A DNA stretch of 10,299 nucleotides from an uncultured bacterium (GTDB lineage Bacteria > CAIJMQ01), in NCBI GenBank assembly GCA_964573245.1, contig CAZNJA010000049.1, positions 1 to 10,299 of the forward strand. The letters run 5' to 3'. Both the position numbers and the translations under genes were made by a program. Positions 1 through 10,165 of this stretch are shown here, piece after piece. Numbering within the stretch: position 1 is the first letter of the stretch; each line of letters opens with the position of its first letter. The notes under the pieces are model-generated. The model was not told where the DNA came from. It saw nothing but the letters and a program-made list of their open reading frames with translations, and did not search any database.

Positions 1-1649
1 TCTATTTCATAACTCGAAAAACCCTTCCCGAATTTCCTAACGTCGATTATGGCTTGAGAGAACTCATCGGGAAGAACCTTTTTATAATTTTTTCCTATAG
101 CCGAAGAAGCTGGAATTCCCGTAATTTTCTGCGCTTTTTCGTTAAATATACGAATCTTGTCTTCTTTGTCCGTAACAATGACTGCATTCGCCAAATTTTT
201 TAAAATATTTTCCTGATAGAGTTTGGCTTGCTCAACCTGCGTGTAAAGACGCGCGTTTTCTATGGCGACACCCGCTTGACTGGCAAGAGTAAGCAAAAGG
301 TCTATATCTTCTTCCTTAAACATGTCTCCTGAAGATTTGCTCTTGAGAAAAATTATCCCCGTTAAAATATCTTCTCTAATTATCGGTATTGCTATCTCCG
401 CTTCGATTTGAGCAAGAGAATTTTTCATATCCTGAAATTGCTTGCCCTCACCCATACGTTCCAATTCATCTTTAATAACTACATCCTTTTTCTGTGTCAT
501 CCAAACAACAAGGGAGTCACCTTGAGAAAGCGTGATATTTTTATTGGAAAAATTTCCCAATAAGGACTTTGCCTTAAATTTACCTGCCTCGCGTAAATAG
601 ATAACACCACCGTCTATACCCACTACATCTGTTATATTCTTTAAAATATATTTTAACAACTTTGGCAGAGGCAAAACTCTATTTAATTCCCTACCCATTT
701 GTTTGAGAACTCTTTGATATTCATATTTTTTCTTGCCGAATATTTTATCAACTAAAGTTTGAATTTTTTCCCTTAATGGCAAAAATATAAATGTTACAAG
801 TAAAGCCGCAAAAACAGCGGAAAAGAAAAAAGTCTGATAACCAATAATCACTCTAAATACACGTTCTGCTAAAAGAACCCCCAACAACAGAACAGCAGTT
901 ACTGAACCCGTCAGAAGAGTATATATAGCAGTTTTTTTAATTACTAAAGTAATATCAAGAAGTCGATATCTAATAATTGAATAAGCAATAAAACCTGCAA
1001 TCATTACTGAAAAAACAGGACCGATAGCAATAAGTTGGGGGAATCCTAACGCTGGCATAATTGCGCAGGTAACTATAGCCAAAACAGTAACTGTAAGCAT
1101 TCCAGTAAAAATAATTTTCAACTGAATTGCTTCAATACCTGTTTTTATAATTTTCCATTTTTTGAACAAGTAAGTCGAACTTAACCCTACACCACCTATT
1201 ATATAGGCTACAAATAAAGGATAAAATAATCCCGGAATGGGACGAAAAGTTCCATTCGGTAAAACATACACATCTCTTTGAATCAACTTAGTAAAGGAAA
1301 AGAAAATCAAGAGCAAGCCCATAATAACGATACTATAATTCAAAAGGGGAAACCCATATTTTAATTTATTGCGGTCTGCAGGGGGTTTAGGAAAAACTAT
1401 GGAAAAATAAAGAAGAGGTATAGGGACCAAATTACCTGCCGCAAAACACCAATGCCCCCAAAAAACAACCCATTTTATATCTTTAGAGATGGTTACCAAT
1501 AAATTAAATAAACTCCAAACGGCAAAACTATATATAAGTAGTGAAAGCGTCTGATTAACTATCTTTTTAGGTTCTTTGGACAAAACATACGTTGCAATAA
1601 TCAAATTTGCCAAAGTAGAAATTATTAAACCTAAAACTTTTAAAGTCAT
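1..1649 (-). CDS. Membrane sensor protein (HisKA_7TM-like membrane region + GAF + PAS), probably a sensor histidine kinase; 3' end outside window
   Basis: Not in the ORF track. Manual translation from ATG at 1649 stays open to the window edge (about 549 codons): MTLKVLGLIISTLANLIIATYVLSKEPKKIVNQ..., multiple hydrophobic helices, 'IAYSIIRYRLLDI' (typical end of HisKA_7TM), GAF end 'IAIPIIREDILTGIIFL..KSSGDMFKEEDIDLLLTLASQAGVAIENARLY', PAS start 'ILKNLANAVIVTDKEDKIRIFNEKAQKITG'. The output domain is not visible. Confidence 0.88.
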   Translation of the reverse strand, partial: MTLKVLGLIISTLANLIIATYVLSKEPKKIVNQTLSLLIYSFAVWSLFNLLVTISKDIKWVVFWGHWCFAAGNLVPIPLLYFSIVFPKPPADRNKLKYGFPLLNYSIVIMGLLLIFFSFTKLIQRDVYVLPNGTFRPIPGLFYPLFVAYIIGGVGLSSTYLFKKWKIIKTGIEAIQLKIIFTGMLTVTVLAIVTCAIMPALGFPQLIAIGPVFSVMIAGFIAYSIIRYRLLDITLVIKKTAIYTLLTGSVTAVLLLGVLLAERVFRVIIGYQTFFFSAVFAALLVTFIFLPLREKIQTLVDKIFGKKKYEYQRVLKQMGRELNRVLPLPKLLKYILKNITDVVGIDGGVIYLREAGKFKAKSLLGNFSNKNITLSQGDSLVVWMTQKKDVVIKDELERMGEGKQFQDMKNSLAQIEAEIAIPIIREDILTGIIFLKSKSSGDMFKEEDIDLLLTLASQAGVAIENARLYTQVEQAKLYQENILKNLANAVIVTDKEDKIRIFNEKAQKITGIPASSAIGKNYKKVLPDEFSQAIIDVRKFGKGFSSYEI

Positions 1650-2899
1650 TTTAAAGTCCGGTTAAACCTTGAGACAATTAGACTTGCATTACTTCCACCA
1701 AAACCATGAGAATTAATAAGCACTGTGTTTACCTTATTCTTTCTCGCTTTATTGGGAACATAATCCAAATCACATTCATCGTCAAGAAACTCATAATTGA
1801 TAGTCGGAGGAATCAAACCATCTTTAATAGCCATTAACGAAGCAATTAATTGCATAGGTCCAGCTGATGCAAATGGATTCCCTGTCATTGATTTAATTGA
1901 ACTTATAGGGACATTATATGCATAATCACCAAAAACTTCTTTAATTGCAAATGTTTCAGCTCTATCCCTTATAATATCAGAGGGAGCATGAGCACAAATA
2001 TAATCTATATCTTCGGGTTTTAAAGAAGCCTGCCTCAAAACTTTAACCATCTCTTTAGTAAATCCGTTACCTCTTGCATCAGTTTCAAATAAACTCGAAG
2101 CTTCCGTACTTGAGCTATAACCTATTATTTCCCCGTATATAAAAGCATTTCTAATAAGAGCATGTTCTAATTCCTCCAAAATAACAATCCCTGCGCCTTC
2201 ACTTAAAACACCTCCGCTACGTCTCGCGTCAAAAGGTCGGCTTGTCTTAGCAGGATTTCCGTTATGCGAGGAAAGAATTCCTGCCATCCATAAAGTACCC
2301 AAGGTTAAAGGTGTTACAGCCCCATCCGTTCCCCCGGCAATCGCAATATCTACATCTCCTTTTTTTAATGAATGATAGGCAACGCCTACCGCATCTAAAC
2401 CAGCGGTACATCCTGTAGAAATGGTCGTAACTCGTTCACTACAACCCAATTCAACGGAAACTTCCGTAGCCGCAGAATTAGTAATAATAGCAGCAGAACT
2501 AAAAGGATTTACTCTCTGAATGCCCTTCTCTCGAAGATTGATATGTTCTCTCTCGGAAATGTCTCTTCCTCCTGCCGCTGACCCCATATATATTCTTATT
2601 CGTTTGTTAACTAAAGAGTTTTTCTCTATTTTAGCGTCTTTAGTAGCCATCTTTGCCGAAGCAACAGCAAAATGTGTAAATTTCCCTGTTCTTCTCACAG
2701 TTTTAAAATCCATATATTCAGAAGCGTCAAAATCCTTGATCTCACCTGCAATCTGAACAGGAAAAGAAGAAGTGTCAAACGAGGTAATTTTGTCAATGCC
2801 AGACTTGCCGTTTACAAGCGCTTCCCAGAAGGCATCTTTACCTATGCCGTTTGGAGCAACGACTCCAAGCCCTGTCATAACAATTCGCCTTTTACTCAT
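1646..2899 (-). CDS. Beta-ketoacyl synthase family protein (FabF/KS-alpha-like) with an atypical active site
   Basis: MSKRRIVMTGLGVVAPNGIG N-terminus, STGCTAGLDA catalytic Cys, PFDARRSGGVLSEGAG, YICAH, SSIKSMTGN, IPPTIN, NSHGFGGSNAS. The ATG at 2899 (417 aa) is preferred over the track's start at 2941, which falls inside the predicted promoter. Confidence 0.93.
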   Translation of the reverse strand: MSKRRIVMTGLGVVAPNGIGKDAFWEALVNGKSGIDKITSFDTSSFPVQIAGEIKDFDASEYMDFKTVRRTGKFTHFAVASAKMATKDAKIEKNSLVNKRIRIYMGSAAGGRDISEREHINLREKGIQRVNPFSSAAIITNSAATEVSVELGCSERVTTISTGCTAGLDAVGVAYHSLKKGDVDIAIAGGTDGAVTPLTLGTLWMAGILSSHNGNPAKTSRPFDARRSGGVLSEGAGIVILEELEHALIRNAFIYGEIIGYSSSTEASSLFETDARGNGFTKEMVKVLRQASLKPEDIDYICAHAPSDIIRDRAETFAIKEVFGDYAYNVPISSIKSMTGNPFASAGPMQLIASLMAIKDGLIPPTINYEFLDDECDLDYVPNKARKNKVNTVLINSHGFGGSNASLIVSRFNRTLK

Positions 2900-2921
2900 A
2901 TCGATTGGACAATTTTGTACG

Positions 2922-2950
2922 CTTATAACATAAATGAACAATTATGTCAA
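2922..2950 (-). promoter_or_regulatory. Sigma70-type promoter for the ketosynthase-sensor operon
   Basis: Minus strand TTGACA (2950-2945), 17 nt spacer, TATAAG (2927-2922), with an extended -10 TG (TGTTATAAG). Confidence 0.75.
2928..2947. promoter_or_regulatory. Imperfect palindrome (putative operator) covering the promoter spacer and part of the -35 box
   Basis: ACATAAATG-AA-CAATTATGT, arms match at 8 of 9 positions. Confidence 0.45.
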
Positions 2951-2987: not shown

Positions 2988-4547
2988 TTACCGAGGAAAA
3001 TCCGAAAATAGACTTTTTATTGCGGGATAGTCCCTATTAACCATATTCTGAATAATCGTCTTTGTAGTGGTTATATAATCCTTCTCCAAAAGGTCGGCTA
3101 ACAGGAAATAATAATCAGGTATTGATGGTATCTGAAACTTCTTAGTTACTGCATCCACAAATTTTTGATATAGAGCCACAATAAATTCAAAACTAACATC
3201 TTCTACTCTTTTATCCATTATTTCATACTTAAAAGGAAAAGGAGGCCAATACTTAACAGGCATGAGATATTTTATGGGATAAACAATAAATTTTTCCACA
3301 AATTTATCGTCAAGGTATATTCCGTATTTCCCTGGGTTTCTACTCCATTCAGTATTAGGATATATACCTGCGGGTAAAGCCAAAAGCGAATTTAAATATG
3401 GGCTCAATTCATTAATCCTTCCTAATGTATTCTCCATGCTTTGCCTTGTCTCCCCCGGAATAGGAAAAATGAAACTGCCGACAGTATAAATACCCACTTT
3501 GTGGACTTTTGTAAGAGTATCTTTTATCTGTTTATATGTAATACCTTTTTTAAGTTTTACAAGATTTCCATCATCCAATGATTCTATCCCAAAAAATAAA
3601 GCCAAAAAACCTGCTTTTTTCAATAACTCAAAACTTTCGTGAGCATTAGAATCTACTCTGGAGAACCCACACAGCTTGATTCTCCCTTTTAATTTTGAAT
3701 TTAGTATCGCCTTTGAAAGTTCGGATAAGGAATTTTTCGGCGGGGTTGAATCTTCTATCCTAAAATGCGCAATATTACGTTCAAAGTGCAATTTCTCCAG
3801 TTCATCTATGACATTTTCTGTTTTCCTGACTTTATTAATCCTTCCGTAGTTCTCCGGCCTGATGCAAAACACACAATTATTAGGACAAGCTTGGTTCGAC
3901 AAAGTAATTGAATATATTGGTATTTTGTACCCTATATTTCCGTAGACACTTTCATCATATAACGCTATAGGATAATCGTCTACATTTATAGGAATTTTCC
4001 TGTTTTCTATTGTTTTCCCACTATCATATAGAATTAGGTTTGGAATGTCCTTAACATCCTTATTTAAAACTATCCCTTCGACAGCGTTGTAGCCGAGTCC
4101 CGTTACAAGCCCGTCTAAATTATTGTTAGATAATTTCAATACGTGTTCCTTGAACCAATCCACTTTCTGCCCTACTCCATATATTTTTATACCAGGATTT
4201 TCTTTCTTTACTAAATTCGCCAAATCTATAGAGAATTTAAACCCTGTTCCATGCCATAAATTCAAAAATATCACATCATAATTTTTCTCAAGAATACCTT
4301 TTGCTTCTTCTTCCAATCCAGATTCATACAATTCGTTAGTATCATAAAAAGATAATCTGCCCAAATTCTCCATATATTCCTTGCCGAAATCCATCAAATC
4401 TGAAAGATTGGCTCTGTCCACTATATTTACTCGTTTCCCGTGTTTTTTGATTATGGCAGCGATTCTTCCCAATCTTTCGTTAGGGAATAAATGTGAAATG
4501 TCGTCTAATTCACCCGAGAAATTATAAACTAAATACTTTTGCGACAT
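2988..4547 (-). CDS. B12-binding-domain radical SAM protein
   Basis: N-terminal cobalamin-binding-like segment (FPNERLGRIAAIIKKHGKRVNIVD), CxxxCxxC motif 'ACPNNCVFC', 'FRIEDS', 'FSRVD', 'LKKAGFLALFFGIES', 'GSFIFPIPGET'; 519 aa. Confidence 0.88.
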   Translation of the reverse strand: MSQKYLVYNFSGELDDISHLFPNERLGRIAAIIKKHGKRVNIVDRANLSDLMDFGKEYMENLGRLSFYDTNELYESGLEEEAKGILEKNYDVIFLNLWHGTGFKFSIDLANLVKKENPGIKIYGVGQKVDWFKEHVLKLSNNNLDGLVTGLGYNAVEGIVLNKDVKDIPNLILYDSGKTIENRKIPINVDDYPIALYDESVYGNIGYKIPIYSITLSNQACPNNCVFCIRPENYGRINKVRKTENVIDELEKLHFERNIAHFRIEDSTPPKNSLSELSKAILNSKLKGRIKLCGFSRVDSNAHESFELLKKAGFLALFFGIESLDDGNLVKLKKGITYKQIKDTLTKVHKVGIYTVGSFIFPIPGETRQSMENTLGRINELSPYLNSLLALPAGIYPNTEWSRNPGKYGIYLDDKFVEKFIVYPIKYLMPVKYWPPFPFKYEIMDKRVEDVSFEFIVALYQKFVDAVTKKFQIPSIPDYYFLLADLLEKDYITTTKTIIQNMVNRDYPAIKSLFSDFPR

Positions 4548-5059: not shown

Positions 5060-7783
5060 CTATTGCGGAAAAACAAACCTCAAATAAGTATCTTGAACAA
5101 GCGCTTCCACTTCAAATGTTGCCTCTTCAGGCCAAAATTCGAATGTAAATATCGAGTCCTCTTTTACTTGTTGGAGCAATTCTTTTTTAAGTATAATTTC
5201 CGTATCAGTGTAATCGAAATCTGTATCCATACTTAGATAAGGCGAATTTGCACGCAGAATAGGTTCTTTATTTTCTTTGGTAAGCAGACTTATTTTATCT
5301 AATTTGACGCCGTTGAACGATATAGGAATTAAAAGCGTTGCATCATTACTAACTGATATTGTTTTTCTCGAAAATTGAGGTAAGTCATATCGGATGATAT
5401 TAAGCGGCATATCTACGCCTCGAGAAAAATCAAATATTAAAGTGGCAACAGCACCTATTCCTGCAGTTTCAAGTAGTTTTGCAACATATTCTTTTTTTAT
5501 CGTTGCCTCTAAAGAAGAATAAAGATAATCCATCCCCTTAATTAGCTTTTTATCCCCATTATAAATAGCGAGAAGTTCATTACCGTTAAGTGCCCAGCTA
5601 ATCTCTAAATCTTCTTCTACTTCCGCGTTAATCTTAAAATAGTAATTTATAGGGAATATAAATGAGTTTGGGATGCCTGAGCCTGCGTTTACAGTTATTT
5701 CTTTGAGTACTTCGTCTCGCCAAATTCTATTTTTTCTGTCATAGTATTGGCATTGATTCGCATTTCCATTGTCCCATAATATACAAGGCATACGATATTT
5801 ATATGCCCGCTTAGCAACATAATCGTGGTAATACCATCGCGACAATTGGCCGTTTTTTGACAGAGTCCCCCATTCGCTTATAATCACAGGTATCTTATTT
5901 TTAACAAATTTGTAATAAATCTGCCTAAGAGTTTTATATACTTCAGTCTTCTCCCCTGGAGTACCCCAACTCGTTACTCCGCGACAATTACTTAAAAAAC
6001 ACCAAGGTTTATAATAATGGACTTTAAGAATAATAAACTTGTCATCTGGCACTTCTAACTTCAATATTTCCAATATTTCTTCGCTCGCATATGCTAAGCC
6101 ACCAAGCACAACAAGCCGCTTGCTATTATGACCGCCTGATGGACGGATAATTTTTAGAACCCGTTCATGTAAATCATGCAGTTGCTCGTGTGTCAAATCA
6201 TATCTGGTCTCCGGAAAAAAAGGATTTTTTGGGGGGGCGAATTTTTTAGGACGACCTCTATCACTACGAGGCTCGTTCAAAATTTCAAATATCAATTTTT
6301 CACTTTTTCCCTTGAATCGTTCCGCAATTTGCTGCCAGAGTTTTTCAAATTTGCCTATGTTATTTTCATAATCATTCACATATTTACCCGTTTCCGGGTC
6401 AATTGCCATTTTAGATATCCAATCATTGTCATGATGAGTATTAATTATTACCCAGAAATCTCTTTTTAAAGCCCAGTCAATAACTTCTTCCACCCTATCA
6501 AACCATTGGGGGTCAATTTTATAGTCAGGCGCATGACCCATGTGATATGCCCACGTTACAGGAATCCTTACAGTCTTAAAACCTGCTTTTTTGATATCGT
6601 CAAAAATATATTCTTCAGCAGGAGGATTATCCCAAGAACCTTCAGTCGGCACTGCGTCTAATGTATTTCCTAAATTCCAGCCGGGAGACATTTGCTTGAC
6701 CGCTTCCTGCGGACTGACAGTCTCGAATTTTTCTATTGCGACCTCTTTGGGTTTTGTTGTGATTTGCCTGCTATCTTCCTTGGATAAGTATTCTCTTAAC
6801 CATGTCAAGGCAGGACGCCCCATACCATCGGCTCTTATTAAACAAGCGTCTTTTTCAGGAATAGTTTGTTGTCTATCTCCCCATATTGTTATTCCTTCTA
6901 TATTGGGGTGCTCCCACAATAAGGGGAATTGTTCCCGATATACTTGCAATTGTTTATCATCATCCGCAAGGTTTACTTCGTATCCTGTTATATATAGGGG
7001 CAAACCCGTCTGTGCTAACTTCTCCAAATGAAACCGTATCACGCTAATGTCTTTATCTTCTAAAAAATTACCCTGAATACCTATACCGTCTATTAAATTG
7101 TTTTTTCTCAAGAGGTTTATTATTTCTAAATAATCGTCTATTGAAGTCCAACCATTTAGAATTCCCCATTCATTTATGATTAATTTTGAGTTGGGACAGT
7201 ATTTTTTTGCTTTTTCAAAAGACCAAATGACCCAGTCCCATCCTGTTTTGCCATCGTCACCTAATGCTTGTTTGTAAAAAGGAGGTTCTCTTAAAGGTTC
7301 ATTAACTACAATGATATAGTCTGCGGCAGGATATCTTTGCCCGAAAAGCTCTACCCATTCTTCTATTTCTTTTCTCTGTTCAGCCAAAGAAAGAGAAGCA
7401 AGCCAATCGGGTTCTTGTTTGCCCCAAATTAGAGCATCCTGCGTAAATAAAAAGCCGTTGTTTTTTGCGTAGAGATAAATCCGGTCCAATCCGCTCCATT
7501 GCATATTGTTTCGGCTGAATTCGATTGAACGCCATTTACCATGGTTTTTGGGAGTCACTTGGTTCCAATAATTGCCAAATTGGTATGGGATATTGGAGCC
7601 TTCTCTTATTATATTGCCTAAAAATTTGTCCTCTGCGGAAGATTCAGGCTCTGCCTGAAGAGAAAAGAAAATAACAGCAAAAAACGCTGTTAATATTGTT
7701 AATAATCTAATATCTACATGAAAAAACCGGTATGTAAAATAATCCATTGTCAATTTTCTCATTTTTACAATTCCCATTCTCAT
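5060..7783 (-). CDS. Secreted multimodular glycoside hydrolase: degenerate GH10 + GH5 (subfamily 4-like endoglucanase/xyloglucanase) + X2/Ig-like + CBM46-like
   Basis: Hydrophobic signal ending SLQA. GH10 motifs WNQVTPxN.GKW, VVNEP, IDGIGIQG. GH5 motifs GWNLGNTLDA, VRIPVTW, IINTHHD, FEILNEP (acid/base), HYY.PW.F, IISEWG (nucleophile), WDNG. The C-terminal LNGNEL...G.DY...F.FS.G and TFEFW segments resemble the X2-CBM46 tail of Bacillus Cel5B-type enzymes. Several in-frame ATGs (7783, 7777, 7762, 7747) make the start uncertain. Confidence 0.9.
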   Translation of the reverse strand: MRMGIVKMRKLTMDYFTYRFFHVDIRLLTILTAFFAVIFFSLQAEPESSAEDKFLGNIIREGSNIPYQFGNYWNQVTPKNHGKWRSIEFSRNNMQWSGLDRIYLYAKNNGFLFTQDALIWGKQEPDWLASLSLAEQRKEIEEWVELFGQRYPAADYIIVVNEPLREPPFYKQALGDDGKTGWDWVIWSFEKAKKYCPNSKLIINEWGILNGWTSIDDYLEIINLLRKNNLIDGIGIQGNFLEDKDISVIRFHLEKLAQTGLPLYITGYEVNLADDDKQLQVYREQFPLLWEHPNIEGITIWGDRQQTIPEKDACLIRADGMGRPALTWLREYLSKEDSRQITTKPKEVAIEKFETVSPQEAVKQMSPGWNLGNTLDAVPTEGSWDNPPAEEYIFDDIKKAGFKTVRIPVTWAYHMGHAPDYKIDPQWFDRVEEVIDWALKRDFWVIINTHHDNDWISKMAIDPETGKYVNDYENNIGKFEKLWQQIAERFKGKSEKLIFEILNEPRSDRGRPKKFAPPKNPFFPETRYDLTHEQLHDLHERVLKIIRPSGGHNSKRLVVLGGLAYASEEILEILKLEVPDDKFIILKVHYYKPWCFLSNCRGVTSWGTPGEKTEVYKTLRQIYYKFVKNKIPVIISEWGTLSKNGQLSRWYYHDYVAKRAYKYRMPCILWDNGNANQCQYYDRKNRIWRDEVLKEITVNAGSGIPNSFIFPINYYFKINAEVEEDLEISWALNGNELLAIYNGDKKLIKGMDYLYSSLEATIKKEYVAKLLETAGIGAVATLIFDFSRGVDMPLNIIRYDLPQFSRKTISVSNDATLLIPISFNGVKLDKISLLTKENKEPILRANSPYLSMDTDFDYTDTEIILKKELLQQVKEDSIFTFEFWPEEATFEVEALVQDTYLRFVFPQ

Positions 7784-7803: not shown

Positions 7804-9222
7804 TTATCTTATCAAGCCATAAACAGGAACTTTTATAATTGGCTGGTAAACATTGTCAGTATGGAATATTATATCTCCTTTTATATTGCCTGTCGGCGCG
7901 TTTTCTTCCAAAACCGCGGTTATTTCATATTCCTTATTTTTGTTTTTAGGGATTGTGTATACTGAGATGCAATCAAACGGGTTTTCTACTTCTTTTATTT
8001 TGAAAGGTCCTTTGCATGTCGTAAAAATAGTTAACTTAGATACGCATTTTTCTCCTTTTTCTATAAAACCGAAGAAAAATGAAGATGGTTTAAACTCAAT
8101 ATCTCTTTTGATATTGCCAAAAATAGGAATTTCTATTTTCGGATATTCTTTGTCATTAGTATAAATAGTGAGGTTTTCCTGCAAATTGCCAAAAGGGATA
8201 TTAGAATCAAAAATAATTTCTATCTCGAATTTCTTAATATATTCTGTAATAGAATTTGCAATTTCTTTGATTTTGACAGAAATAAAATCAGAGGAGGTTT
8301 TTACTTTAAAAATTTTAAAATCTTCCGTTCCTATTTTATTGATATATAGTGTTTCAATAACATCCGCGCCCTTCTTGATATCTTCTAAAACCATTGTTTG
8401 TGGTGAGAAGCGAAGTTCCGTTTCGACAATTCCTTTAACCTGCAGTTTAACTATTGGGGTCACAGTATCATTGGAATACACATATACAGTTTGATTCTGA
8501 GACCCTTTATATCCGGCAGTATCAAAAACTACTTTTATCTCATCCTCACTTTGATAAGGGATACCTCTTTTGGAAAAAATAACATCAGTGCAACTACACG
8601 GCGTCCTTACTTTATCAATTACAAGTTTTTCTTTACCGACATTTTTAAATTTAAATATATGCTCTACTTTTTTTCCTCGCCGAACTACTCCAAAGTTATA
8701 AATATATTCTTTAAATCTTATATCCGGACCCCTTACTTCTATTTTGGGGAAAGAGCCCTCGTTTTTTGAAATTAAAAGAGCAAGCCCGGAATAAACACCG
8801 GTAAACTTGTCTTTGGTTATTAGGTACGGCTCCTTGGGATAATCTATTACGTTCAAATGATTCCCTTCAAATCCGTCTATTACAACACAATGATTATCCC
8901 AAAGATACGCAATTATCGGTATTTTCAGTTTAGAGAGTTCATCCAGCCCTATTTTCATCCCGACAGCATAAAGCCCTTTTGTTTTAGCCGCTTTATAAAG
9001 ACCCGCCATTGTCGTGCCTTTTGACTCATCATAGCCAGATAGTTTCTTTACTTCTTCAAGGTTCGTCGAAACTTCTAACTTTTGAAAGGCAACTAACAAA
9101 GCGTTGGGACCACACAGGGAATTAGGTTCAGGGACAGATTTAGATTGAGAAAACAGTAAAAATGGGAAAGACAAAAGAGCAAACAACAATAAAAAACTAC
9201 AAAAAAATGTTTTTGTTCTCAC
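7804..9222 (-). CDS. Secreted C39-like cysteine peptidase fused to DUF1573 and further Ig-like domains
   Basis: GTG start and a Sec-type signal. 'SLCGPNAL...GTTMAGLYKAAKTKGL...NHCVVID...VIDY' gives a Cys/His/Asp arrangement. DUF1573 signature 'YNFGVV..G..VEHIFKFKNVG...LVIDKVRTPCSCT'. Repeated modules end in 'YSND....VKLQVKG', 'IYTND...IEIPIFG' and 'FHTD...IKVPVYG'. Confidence 0.82.
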   Translation of the reverse strand: MRTKTFFCSFLLLFALLSFPFLLFSQSKSVPEPNSLCGPNALLVAFQKLEVSTNLEEVKKLSGYDESKGTTMAGLYKAAKTKGLYAVGMKIGLDELSKLKIPIIAYLWDNHCVVIDGFEGNHLNVIDYPKEPYLITKDKFTGVYSGLALLISKNEGSFPKIEVRGPDIRFKEYIYNFGVVRRGKKVEHIFKFKNVGKEKLVIDKVRTPCSCTDVIFSKRGIPYQSEDEIKVVFDTAGYKGSQNQTVYVYSNDTVTPIVKLQVKGIVETELRFSPQTMVLEDIKKGADVIETLYINKIGTEDFKIFKVKTSSDFISVKIKEIANSITEYIKKFEIEIIFDSNIPFGNLQENLTIYTNDKEYPKIEIPIFGNIKRDIEFKPSSFFFGFIEKGEKCVSKLTIFTTCKGPFKIKEVENPFDCISVYTIPKNKNKEYEITAVLEENAPTGNIKGDIIFHTDNVYQPIIKVPVYGLIR

Positions 9223-9238
9223 AATTAGAATTTATTCC

Positions 9239-10165
9239 CTACTTTGTTTCTTCCGCCTTTTTCAATTCTTCTTCTTCTTCAGGAACAATTACCCCCACTT
9301 CTTCAAGCAGTTCCCTTGCAGGAACATCTCTGCCGATTATCACCGATATATCTTGAATTTCATCTCGGACTCTTGTCCCTTCAGCCCATTCTATTATGAA
9401 TTGTTCGTCGGAAACACCCTGATTGATAGATATATTTGTAGCAGTAGTCACTTCCTCCCCGCTCCATATAACTTCAGTAGAAAGCCAAATGCCTCCCTTA
9501 AATTCCTGCAGTTTAAATGAATCCCACCACGCAATAACACCTTTGTCAGGATGAATTATTTCTATCTTTAACGGCTGGAATCTTCTGCCCGTATCTACCC
9601 AAACTTTATATTGCATTCCTCCCTCGGGAGCAAATTTGCCGCTGACTATATGACAAAGATGCCCATCAATATCTCCTGTCCCGATTAGTTCTGCGGTACC
9701 GTTTCTAAACAACCATATCCATTTACTCCCTTTATATCCAACAGTAAATTCTGGAGGAGGGGAAAAGTCCCTAAAAACTTGATAATTCTCGCCTTCAACA
9801 ATTATTCCATATCCAGAGTCCTTCGGTTTATCTAAATCCCGGCTCCAGCTGATTGTTTTTCCGCGGATATAGGACTCTACTCTCTGTATATTGGTGGCTT
9901 TGTCTCTGGCTTCCAGATACAGCATGTCTCCCTTTCTAATCCATTTTCCATCGTGCCCACAGTAAATTCCGTGTTTTCCGGGAAGGCATTTCTTCTGAAA
10001 ATCAAGAGTTATATCCTTAACTAAAGATGCGTTATGTTCAATTCCCGCGGCAATAAATTCCAAGGTTATGTTGTCGTCAACAGCAAAAGAAGGAGAATAT
10101 ATAGAAGAAAAACTAACTACAAATACTGTTAAAACAAATATTAATAAATACTTTTCCTTTTTCAT
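9239..10165 (-). CDS. Secreted hypothetical protein, LolA-fold/lipoprotein-sorting-like
   Basis: Signal peptide MKKEKYLLIFVLTVFVVSFSSIYSPSFA. 'IGTGDIDGHLCHIV...KVWVD......PLKIE' and 'NISINQGVSDEQFIIEWAEGTRV' resemble LolA-like family patterns. Acidic tail. The ORF itself is solid, while the fold assignment is tentative. Confidence 0.65.
   Translation of the reverse strand: MKKEKYLLIFVLTVFVVSFSSIYSPSFAVDDNITLEFIAAGIEHNASLVKDITLDFQKKCLPGKHGIYCGHDGKWIRKGDMLYLEARDKATNIQRVESYIRGKTISWSRDLDKPKDSGYGIIVEGENYQVFRDFSPPPEFTVGYKGSKWIWLFRNGTAELIGTGDIDGHLCHIVSGKFAPEGGMQYKVWVDTGRRFQPLKIEIIHPDKGVIAWWDSFKLQEFKGGIWLSTEVIWSGEEVTTATNISINQGVSDEQFIIEWAEGTRVRDEIQDISVIIGRDVPARELLEEVGVIVPEEEEELKKAEETK
9269..9323. repeat. 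55-bp exact direct repeat, copy 1
   Basis: TTCTTCTTCTTCAGGAACAATTACCCCCACTTCTTCAAGCAGTTCCCTTGCAGGA, identical to 10245-10299. Confidence 0.95.

Follow-up and report, generated by a model that had tools for sequence, protein, structure and literature searches.

Several bacterial signalling systems bring the gene for a synthase together with that for its receptor; LuxM/LuxN, ComQXPA and Agr all have such synthase–receptor layouts, and the Rpf system (RpfF/RpfC/RpfG) has an HD-GYP output. AtoS/AtoC is an acetoacetate-responsive pair that controls the use of short-chain fatty acids. The PhcB/PhcS cassette is described as one operon containing synthase, polytopic kinase and regulators, with a methyltransferase partner and methyl 3-hydroxymyristate as signal (PMC8578825). 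For PrsK the stimulus was called obscure in 2006 (PMC1569441), and an acyl synthase family associated with the PrsK/PEP-CTERM system is described as making long-chain N-acyl amides (PMC9762135). The locus considered here lies in the first 10,299 bases of contig C49 (hereafter the window), part of a 1.46-Mb assembly of an uncultured bacterium (110 contigs, 93% complete), and centers on a gene for a stand-alone ketosynthase (KS) that overlaps the gene for a membrane sensor kinase with a seven-transmembrane (7TM) domain. We propose, with a probability of about 0.5, that the window holds the front half of a make-and-sense acyl-signal cassette, in which an enzyme pair would make a putative signal and the co-translated kinase would read it. 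No description of a KS–7TM kinase cassette, or of the KS clade concerned, was found in the literature.

All genes of the window lie on the minus strand. The KS gene (1646..2899; identified by Pfam and alignment) encodes 417 amino acids (aa) from an ATG at 2899, the mechanical list of open reading frames (ORFs) beginning instead at a TTG at 2941. Its stop codon (TGA, 1648-1646) overlaps the start codon (ATG, 1649-1647) of the sensor gene (3..1649) as ATGA (1646..1649), seen in the sequence TTTAAAATGACTTTA, an arrangement consistent with translational coupling. The sensor ORF leaves the window at base 3, where the contig end cuts the gene within PAS, and the 549 N-terminal residues encoded up to that point contain HisKA_7TM (PF16927, residues 8-234; 46.8 bits, above the gathering score of 28.6), GAF (328-464) and PAS (480-534) domains according to Pfam. 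Full-length orthologs comprise 833-841 aa and carry a C-terminal HisKA-HATPase. An AlphaFold model of the sensor from 44 homologs is confident, with a predicted local distance difference test (pLDDT) score of 85, and a Foldseek search of the PDB with this model gave GAF-domain matches only. Upstream of the KS, on the same strand and ending 88 nucleotides (nt) before it, is the gene for a 519-aa radical S-adenosylmethionine (SAM) enzyme, putatively of the B12-binding type (2988..4547).

The pairing of KS and kinase is conserved far beyond the window. One genome per species (185,579 species) was scanned with patterns for the KS only; this yielded 152 relatives, and the 80 best loci were taken for analysis. 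Wherever 450 nt or more of sequence follow the KS (74 of 74 loci), a 7TM-kinase N-terminus is encoded immediately after it on the same strand, so that in every such locus the enzyme gene is co-located and co-oriented with a membrane kinase, as in a synthase–receptor pair; the remaining six of the 80 end too early downstream of the KS to judge. Of 68 next-gene ORFs, 54 match HisKA_7TM in Pfam at E <=1e-6, and most of the others are truncated or miscalled. The stop-to-start distance, measurable in 55 loci, is -4 in 24, -11 to -14 in 7, 1-55 in 22 and larger in 2. In three congeners and two other genera of the class, the radical SAM gene comes first, then the KS and then the sensor, as far as their contigs reach.

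A control set of 24 fabF loci from unrelated genomes behaves differently: acpP is near in 20 of 24, and a kinase follows in none of the 23 true Cys-His-His loci. The only kinase-bearing control locus encodes a Cys-His-Gln variant KS within the same kind of cassette. Conversely, ACP-like (acyl carrier protein) matches were found in 0 of the 80 cassette loci, which lack the acpP/fab context of FabF. The window itself holds no acpP, fabG, fabD or chain-length factor (CLF) gene according to Pfam (all ORFs of at least 150 aa), and a tblastn search of it with the genome's own ACP gave a best E of only 4.4.

Judged by record titles, the carriers belong to Ratteibacteria, Omnitrophota, Thermodesulfobacteriota/Desulfovibrio, Armatimonadota, Verrucomicrobiota, Kiritimatiellia and Lentisphaerae, with further titles naming Bacillota/Dethiobacteria, Elusimicrobia, Nitrospirales and Poribacteria. 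The KS clade thus spans at least 10 phyla, mainly of uncultured anaerobes. KS homologs, including those of the Desulfovibrio-type member, bear generic FabF names only. The closest named relatives of the window KS are proteins from metagenome-assembled genomes (MAGs) labelled Candidatus Ratteibacteria (81% identity) and Omnitrophota/Omnitrophica (75%).

The KS has the KAS I/II fold, with matches to both the N-terminal (153.7 bits, E 8.8e-45) and C-terminal (91.1 bits, E 6.6e-26) ketoacyl-synt domains of Pfam. It aligns over its full length with B. subtilis FabF (PDB 4LS5; 45% identity, E 1.3e-107), and its best NCBIfam match is fabF (TIGR03150), at 446.9 bits below the equivalog cut-off of 493.75. 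The alignment to 4LS5 shows that the nucleophilic Cys, the first His, the Lys and the GFGG gate loop of FabF are retained. The active site is nevertheless not the Cys-His-His triad of elongating KAS I/II enzymes: it consists of Cys164-His304-Asn341 and Lys336, with Gly230, Pro306, Asp308 and Gln350 as signature residues. KSMTGNP in the KS aligns with KSMTGH of 4LS5, and AHAPSD replaces AHGTST of FabF. Elsewhere in the genome a canonical fabF with the sequences INAHGTST and KSMTGH directly follows acpP; one part of this gene lies at the end of contig C82 and the other at the end of C94, the two sharing 17 residues. The KS is not the housekeeping FabF.

These results bear out most of what a preliminary description, made from the window sequence, had said of the KS. 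It had reported the stop/start overlap with the sensor, the K-S/G-x-T-G-N-P motif and the absence of acpP, fabG, fabD and CLF genes, all of which are confirmed. It had also asked how often homologs with this motif have a HisKA_7TM sensor gene next to them and whether a separate canonical fabF exists; the adjacency is found in every assessable locus and the separate fabF exists, and the two findings that would have spoken against it, namely an adjacency not conserved in other genomes and a KS that is the genome's only FabF, were not encountered. The module that it drew with two genes, KS and sensor, is present and is larger than described, including a radical SAM enzyme or a methyltransferase; the radical SAM gene upstream of the KS had been overlooked.

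The altered active site is a property of the whole clade. AH[AG]PSD together with G[N/D]P occurs in 66 of the 120 best KS homologs among 5.8 billion proteins. In a FastTree phylogeny of 205 rows (Shimodaira–Hasegawa-like support, midpoint root) a single change suffices to account for the Asn/Asp versus His label, and the two groups separate. Comparison of 131 clade rows with 70 canonical rows revealed five positions that are fixed differently: Phe to Gly230, Thr to Pro306, Thr to Asp308, His to Asn341 and Glu to Gln350. At position 341, 126 of the 131 clade rows have Asn and the other 5 Asp, whereas His occupies it in 70 of the 70 canonical rows. Cys, His304 and Lys are retained in 131 of 131 clade rows, the retention of His304 being due in part to retrieval through the patterns AH[AG]PSD or KSM.GN.

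The functional roles of the substituted positions have been described in FabB and FabF, where His333 serves decarboxylation, its partner Glu342 sets its charge, and Thr300 and Thr302 are among the positions discussed (PMC2649909); in EcFabF the phosphopantetheine pocket contains the conserved threonines T305 and T307 (PMC9006962). The KS residues that have changed correspond to Thr300, Thr302, His333 and Glu342 in FabB numbering, EcFabF T305/T307 becoming Pro306/Asp308. With Cys, the first His and Lys invariant, the His-Glu pair turned into Asn-Gln and the carrier pocket changed, the active site therefore looks redesigned rather than degraded, and a site remodelled in this way points to an altered substrate or reaction. 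Cys-His-Asn is the triad of KAS III-type enzymes and is catalytically competent in that family. Condensation by the KS thus stays plausible. As a separate observation, three fusion proteins (P0062, P0066 and P0087) join PilZ, which binds cyclic di-GMP (c-di-GMP), or an ICMT/PEMT-type methyltransferase to a FabF-like KS, tying this kind of KS to c-di-GMP signalling and carboxyl methylation.

The window radical SAM enzyme scores 70.7 bits for Radical_SAM and only 18.9 bits for B12-binding, below the cut-off of 32.1, whereas its cassette homologs in relatives pass both cut-offs. It is 78% identical to the protein of the nearest congener and aligns over its full length, at 27-33% identity, with the cassette enzymes of 40 other loci. 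The aligned gene is the immediate upstream neighbor of the KS in those 40 loci, apart from a few in which it lies two to three genes before the KS. Because the alignment is full-length at only 27-33% identity, the window enzyme is best classed from its sequence as a fast-evolving member of the cassette radical SAM family, which stands before the KS in most diderm cassettes. The nearest NCBIfam models are HpnJ/HpnR and a "lipid biosynthesis B12/radical SAM" family, all matched below their cut-offs.

Relatives with longer contigs supply the output end of the cassette, which the preliminary description had suggested seeking beyond the left edge of the window. On a 165-kb contig of a congener the order is B12-radical SAM, KS, 7TM-GAF-PAS-HisKA-HATPase kinase (833 aa), REC-GAF-PAS-HisKA-HATPase-HTH_8 (798 aa), REC-HD (HD_5, of the HD-GYP type) and FadL/TodX; the 7TM kinase completes its HisKA-HATPase there, and a REC-kinase, a REC-HD-GYP protein and FadL follow. 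Directly upstream of the KS, 62 assessable loci carry a B12-radical SAM gene in 38 cases, a class I SAM methyltransferase in 9 and neither in 15, the class I enzymes being found in Bacillota and Thermodesulfobacteriota (Desulfovibrio/Desulfopertinax-type). Downstream, 44 loci could be assessed, of which 31 encode REC-HD-GYP, predicted to hydrolyse c-di-GMP, and 22 a sigma-54 activator. No cassette component reaches a curated NCBIfam cut-off.

A FadL-like gene accompanies 30 of 58 assessable loci (0 of 9 in Bacillota, 0 of 6 in Thermodesulfobacteriota and 0 of 2 in Armatimonadota). The 80 loci, 1.09 Mb in all, contain 20 matches to the strict sigma-54 pattern TGGYAY-N5-TYGCW; 15 lie directly 5' of a divergent FadL-like gene, 3 at an equivalent place and 2 elsewhere. 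Since a sigma-54-type promoter precedes the divergent FadL gene, this FadL-type outer-membrane channel for hydrophobic compounds is a likely output of the system and a likely target of the cassette sigma-54 activator.

Three further observations were made on the surroundings of the cassette. Contig C89 of the window's own assembly (G000:C89:1-4334, L117) carries a sensor gene of which only the 3' part is present, and then a REC-GAF-PAS-kinase-HTH_8 gene. It was rejected as a plain continuation of the window sensor, its last 557 bases being only 82% identical in DNA to window positions 1-557, and comes either from a strain variant binned together with this genome or from a second, paralogous cassette. 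Cassettes of the Bacillota/Desulfovibrio type have an 850-aa SelA-like+PAS+GGDEF+HD_5 protein before the methyltransferase (L085 6571-9141; also L087, L088, L091 and L095), which is a second c-di-GMP enzyme in these cassettes. In a Dethiobacter alkaliphilus MAG (L094 5495-8761) a class II lanthipeptide synthetase-like gene (DUF4135+LANC_like, 1089 aa) lies on the opposite strand, two genes upstream of the methyltransferase–KS–kinase cassette.

The same association is met when the search starts from the receptor. A profile of the 7TM region built from 16 kinases matched 129 of 401 diverse genomes at a threshold of E 1e-12, and 40 of the best loci outside the window's class were examined, with matches at contig starts and weaker matches dropped. 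The upstream same-strand gene encodes a KS in 19 of these loci, an ICMT/PEMT-type methyltransferase only in 4, an alpha-oxoamine synthase (BioF/Kbl/serine-palmitoyltransferase/CqsA superfamily) in 2, one of them with a B12-radical SAM enzyme, and nothing related in 10. Single cases are GNAT, Methyltransf_31, a RaSEA-like radical SAM protein, a flavin amine oxidase and a PilZ protein. A search of 41 genomes added four weaker, non-orthologous kinases, one preceded by a LuxI/FeeM-like acyl synthase (Autoind_synth 45 bits, FeeM 31.5 bits) and another by a B12-radical SAM enzyme and a thioester reductase. Two of these partner superfamilies include the makers of acyl-homoserine lactone/N-acyl-amide and alpha-hydroxyketone autoinducers. 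At a single locus (L168, G334:C4:13000-32000) a KS-like gene, a GAF kinase, two REC genes and an HD-GYP gene are followed by four short 7TM kinases in tandem, of 532-561 aa.

Ketosynthases linked to such kinases are more varied than the window clade. Typing of the second catalytic position in 17 KS loci gave 3 with Asn, 1 with Asp, 4 with Gln, 2 with Ile, in which the first His is lost as well (Cys-Asn-Ile), and 7 with His. Among the 7 His-type loci an ICMT-type methyltransferase is upstream in 3 and a CLF-like dead partner is present in 2.

The KS start is preceded by a promoter-like site made up of TTGACA (2950-2945), a 17-nt spacer and TATAAG (2927-2922), with TG at 2930-2929 giving an extended -10 element, TGTTATAAG (2922..2930), by consensus match. 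A consensus scanner did not list the site, as it demands T as the final base of the second hexamer. The promoter of the preliminary description is present as a sequence; as a bare pattern it is not statistically exceptional, since TTGACA-N17-TATAA has one match in the window and, with one mismatch allowed, at least one match in 82 of 200 shuffles. The palindrome reported with it also exists, in imperfect form (9-nt arms at 2928-2936 and 2939-2947, 89% complementary). The element conserved in relatives is instead a 16-bp box with the pattern T[GT][TG]RCA-WWW-TTG-NN-CA. Its ideal form, TGTACAAAATTGTACA, is a TGT-N10-ACA site, which we take to be of the type bound by Fis-type helix-turn-helix activators. 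The window carries two copies: box 1, TTGACATAATTGTTCA (2935..2950), recognized by motif conservation, whose first six bases are the -35 hexamer, and box 2, CGTACAAAATTGTCCA (2906..2921), a degenerate copy of the TGT-N10-ACA form between the -10 element and the ATG. Box 2 is marked out by its positional enrichment and by an alignment of five Ratteibacteria-type loci, in which the box is an invariant block immediately 5' of the KS start.

Across the 80 loci the box has 40 unique sites, of which 16 are intergenic, 3 were miscalled as coding, 17 fall in radical SAM ORFs and 4 in other ORFs. Each of the 16 intergenic sites is found at most 170 nt before the first gene of the operon, and none occurs elsewhere in 62 kb of intergenic DNA; the 3 sites labelled coding by over-long ORF calls also lie within this distance. 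The loci with operon-upstream sites are labelled Ratteibacteria, Omnitrophota, Verrucomicrobiota and Kiritimatiellota, some being unlabelled. The placement of the boxes on the window promoter fits a candidate operator, and a conserved box on the operon promoter suggests autoregulation. This agrees with the feedback on the operator proposed earlier, with the box rather than the palindrome as the conserved element.

The 17 sites in radical SAM ORFs were left out of the count as a coding coincidence, since they coincide with codons for conserved VDIFEH and YKFVQG. Such ORFs hold the pattern twice, 87 nt apart (L049, L057, L061, L062, L068, L070, L076, L081, L097, L104 and L114), a spacing near the 79-83 nt of intergenic box pairs. 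Coding constraint explains these pairs, an internal operator being the conceivable alternative. A search of the window's own genome for the box gave two sites, one of them within an ORF and probably due to chance. At the other site, G000:C54:7871-7886 (L126 about 1501-1530), the 19-mer GTACAAAATTGTCCAATCG that precedes the KS start recurs exactly, likewise 2 nt before an ATG, here that of a tiny ORF downstream of a TrpC-like gene; this copy could be a regulon site or a remnant.

Taken as a make-and-sense cassette, the locus would operate as follows. The radical SAM enzyme and the KS would build a small, probably methylated, acyl-derived molecule, starting from the acyl-ACP or acyl-CoA pool of the cell and requiring a single condensation or acyl transfer. 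The seven-helix kinase would detect this molecule through its membrane domain or its GAF domain. Gene content in relatives suggests that the signal would then pass from the kinase to the REC-kinase, which follows it in the cassette, and on to an HTH_8 or sigma-54 activator and to REC-HD-GYP. The FadL channel would be the likely output in diderm relatives, and the operon box may provide autoregulation. We favor this scheme because the receptor family repeatedly sits downstream of interchangeable acyl-chemistry enzymes, including two autoinducer-making superfamilies. The comparative tests all favor the signal synthase/receptor module first put forward for this locus, and the synthase and receptor roles themselves are still inferred.

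Several points weigh against such a cassette. Of 62 loci, 15 lack a methylating enzyme immediately before the KS, FadL is missing from the diderm Thermodesulfobacteriota (0 of 6 loci), and genes for an ACP, a thioesterase or an exporter are not part of the cassette. Quorum sensing would be unusual in a genome of 1.46 Mb. Among HisKA_7TM proteins of five carrier genomes, six paralogs have unrelated neighbors and no acyl enzyme next to them; taken alone, the 7TM domain is therefore a sensor module of general use, and the linkage to acyl enzymes is specific to a subfamily of HisKA_7TM. The kinase-linked KS proteins are heterogeneous, 7 of 17 being canonical Cys-His-His, and the Cys-Asn-Ile proteins, by their predicted catalytic residues, could not perform decarboxylative condensation. 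Because variants without the histidines exist, some of these proteins would only bind or transfer an acyl group, and the role shared by all might be acyl binding or transfer, not synthesis. Finally, the KS, SPT-like, PEMT-like and thioester reductase partners are membrane-lipid enzyme classes as well, and control of lipid remodelling fits the same data.

That last point leads to the main alternative, which we regard as less likely than the signal cassette: the 7TM kinase would monitor the membrane, and the KS and the methylating enzyme would alter acyl chains, for example by adding methyl branches, so that the product is bulk lipid and no signal is made. The enzymes found in the KS slot (KS, SPT-like, PEMT/ICMT-type and thioester reductase) all belong to lipid-enzyme classes, the sensor domain spans the membrane several times, B12-radical SAM enzymes that methylate lipids have been described, and the nearest NCBIfam models of the radical SAM enzyme, HpnJ/HpnR among them, are lipid-related, all below cut-off. 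A lone KS without ACP, ketoreductase, dehydratase or enoyl reductase cannot, however, build a lipid pathway, and a normal FabF is still present in the genome. Nor is the enzyme gene placed like a separate regulated target: it lies upstream of the kinase gene and is apparently coupled to it in translation, whereas the detectable sigma-54 target is the FadL channel and not the enzymes. The outputs, moreover, include a predicted c-di-GMP phosphodiesterase.

The KS could also act as a co-sensor, an acyl chain on its Cys or the binding of acyl-ACP reporting the state of the fatty-acid pool to the kinase. The Cys is retained in every kinase-linked KS examined except the CLF-like partners, whereas the His varies (N, D or Q; 2 loci have neither His). 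Other residues stand in place of the threonines of the phosphopantetheine pocket, and the coupling to the kinase is tight. The window clade, however, has the KAS III-type Cys-His-Asn triad, which by analogy with that family would be competent, and the methylating enzyme that is usually co-encoded, together with ICMT-KS fusions (P0087), implies a chemical product. We therefore consider a purely sensory KS improbable.

Still less weight is given to an uptake-and-response system, in which FadL would import an exogenous hydrophobic compound such as a fatty acid, the kinase would sense it, and the KS and radical SAM enzyme would process it. The position of FadL behind a sigma-54 promoter in the cassette and the best matches of the kinase core and activator, to AtoS and AtoC and both below cut-off, are in keeping with it, but the cassette contains no acyl-CoA/acyl-ACP synthetase or beta-oxidation genes, FadL is absent from the Bacillota, Thermodesulfobacteriota and Armatimonadota members, and a KS is biosynthetic, not catabolic. 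That the KS is an ordinary second FabF standing beside a kinase by chance, as its fabF score of 446.9 bits and 45% identity to the B. subtilis enzyme might suggest, is highly improbable: the conserved linkage (74 of 74 cassette loci against 0 of 23 canonical ones) contradicts it, and the score below 493.75 and the altered active site speak against it as well.

Returning to the make-and-sense cassette, a wider proposal can be framed, which we hold tentatively and at somewhat less than even odds: a large family of HisKA_7TM-GAF kinases may be receptors for self-made acyl signals produced by interchangeable synthases (remodelled KS, CqsA-like, LuxI/FeeM-like and ICMT-type). Lipid quorum sensing would then be hidden in many phyla of uncultured anaerobes, including 1.4-Mb Ratteibacteria-like genomes, and the Cys-His-Asn KS would constitute a new class of autoinducer synthase.

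It is worth considering what would follow. If the cassette does make and sense a signal, it represents both a new class of autoinducer synthase, with the KAS I/II fold and a redesigned active site, and a new class of receptor, and the HisKA_7TM/PrsK-type sensor domain gains a class of ligand. Chemical communication would also be documented in Ratteibacteria, Omnitrophota, Kiritimatiellota and Dethiobacteria, in none of which, to our knowledge, is any known. Should the cassette instead serve lipid remodelling, it would be a new and widespread circuit of lipid homeostasis. Two carriers are apparently cultured or culturable, a Pontiellaceae isolate and Dethiobacter alkaliphilus, and the question is directly testable. 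The cassette also touches on ladderane biosynthesis, for which pairs of B12-radical SAM and FabF-like enzymes have been read as candidates; this pairing is linked to kinases and extends far outside the anammox bacteria. The main text of Rattray 2009 (PMC2649909) does not use the terms "histidine kinase", "sensor" or "two-component".

The rest of the window is occupied by genes transcribed before the cassette. In the order of transcription these encode a 308-aa protein whose N-terminus resembles a signal sequence and which belongs to no Pfam or NCBIfam family (9239-10165); a 472-aa protein with an N-terminal Peptidase_C39-like domain and two DUF1573/HYDIN-type immunoglobulin-like domains in Pfam (7804-9222); a secreted-looking, single-chain glycanase of 907 aa with GH10 (xylanase-type), GH5 (cellulase-type) and CBM_X2 domains in Pfam (5060-7783); and tRNA-Arg and tRNA-Phe. 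The radical SAM, KS and sensor genes follow. The C39 domain is unusual outside an ABC exporter, and the glycanase is a large multi-domain enzyme for a genome of 1.46 Mb.

Comparison with described systems places the parts of the cassette as follows. FabF/KAS II has the same fold and length as the KS and shares its Cys, first His, Lys and GFGG; in contrast to FabF, the KS is never beside acpP and always beside a kinase, and has Asn/Gln for His/Glu, Pro/Asp for Thr305/Thr307 and Gly for Phe. The Cys-His-Asn triad is common to the KS and to KAS III and chalcone-synthase-type enzymes. These form another branch of the thiolase superfamily, whereas the KS has the KAS I/II fold and matches the StlD/DarB family only at E 1e-4.

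On the sensory side, the best curated scores are those of the kinase core with AtoS (313-362 bits, cut-off 646) and of the activator with AtoC (441-527 bits, cut-off 714), followed by PrsK and PrsR. The ligand of AtoS/AtoC is a 3-oxo acid, the product class of a KS, which is offered as a lead only; AtoS lacks the 7TM-GAF sensor. PrsK/PrsR likewise combines a polytopic N-terminal sensor and a kinase core with a REC activator of the sigma-54 type. Positions 5-472 of the PrsK model (TIGR02916) are covered by the alignment of the window sensor, the window fragment scoring 61.8 bits and a full-length ortholog 153.6, both below the cut-off of 300, and the activator scores 380-448 bits with PrsR against a cut-off of 502.6. 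In contrast to the PrsK system, the partner enzyme here is a KS, and the annotated neighborhoods contain no exosortase genes.

With Rpf/DSF (diffusible signal factor) the REC-HD-GYP output is the sole shared part, no RpfF-type crotonase being found in the annotated neighborhoods. More generally, the cassette has no protein orthologous to those of Phc, CqsA, LuxM or Rpf; its components are a KAS I/II-fold KS as putative synthase and a HisKA_7TM-GAF-PAS sensor as putative receptor. What it shares with the quorum-sensing cassettes (Phc, CqsA/CqsS, LuxM/LuxN and Rpf) is the same order of an acyl-chemistry enzyme, a membrane kinase and response regulators. The likeness extends to the methyltransferase partner in the case of Phc and, in the case of CqsA, to the enzymes of its own superfamily that take the KS slot beside homologous kinases.

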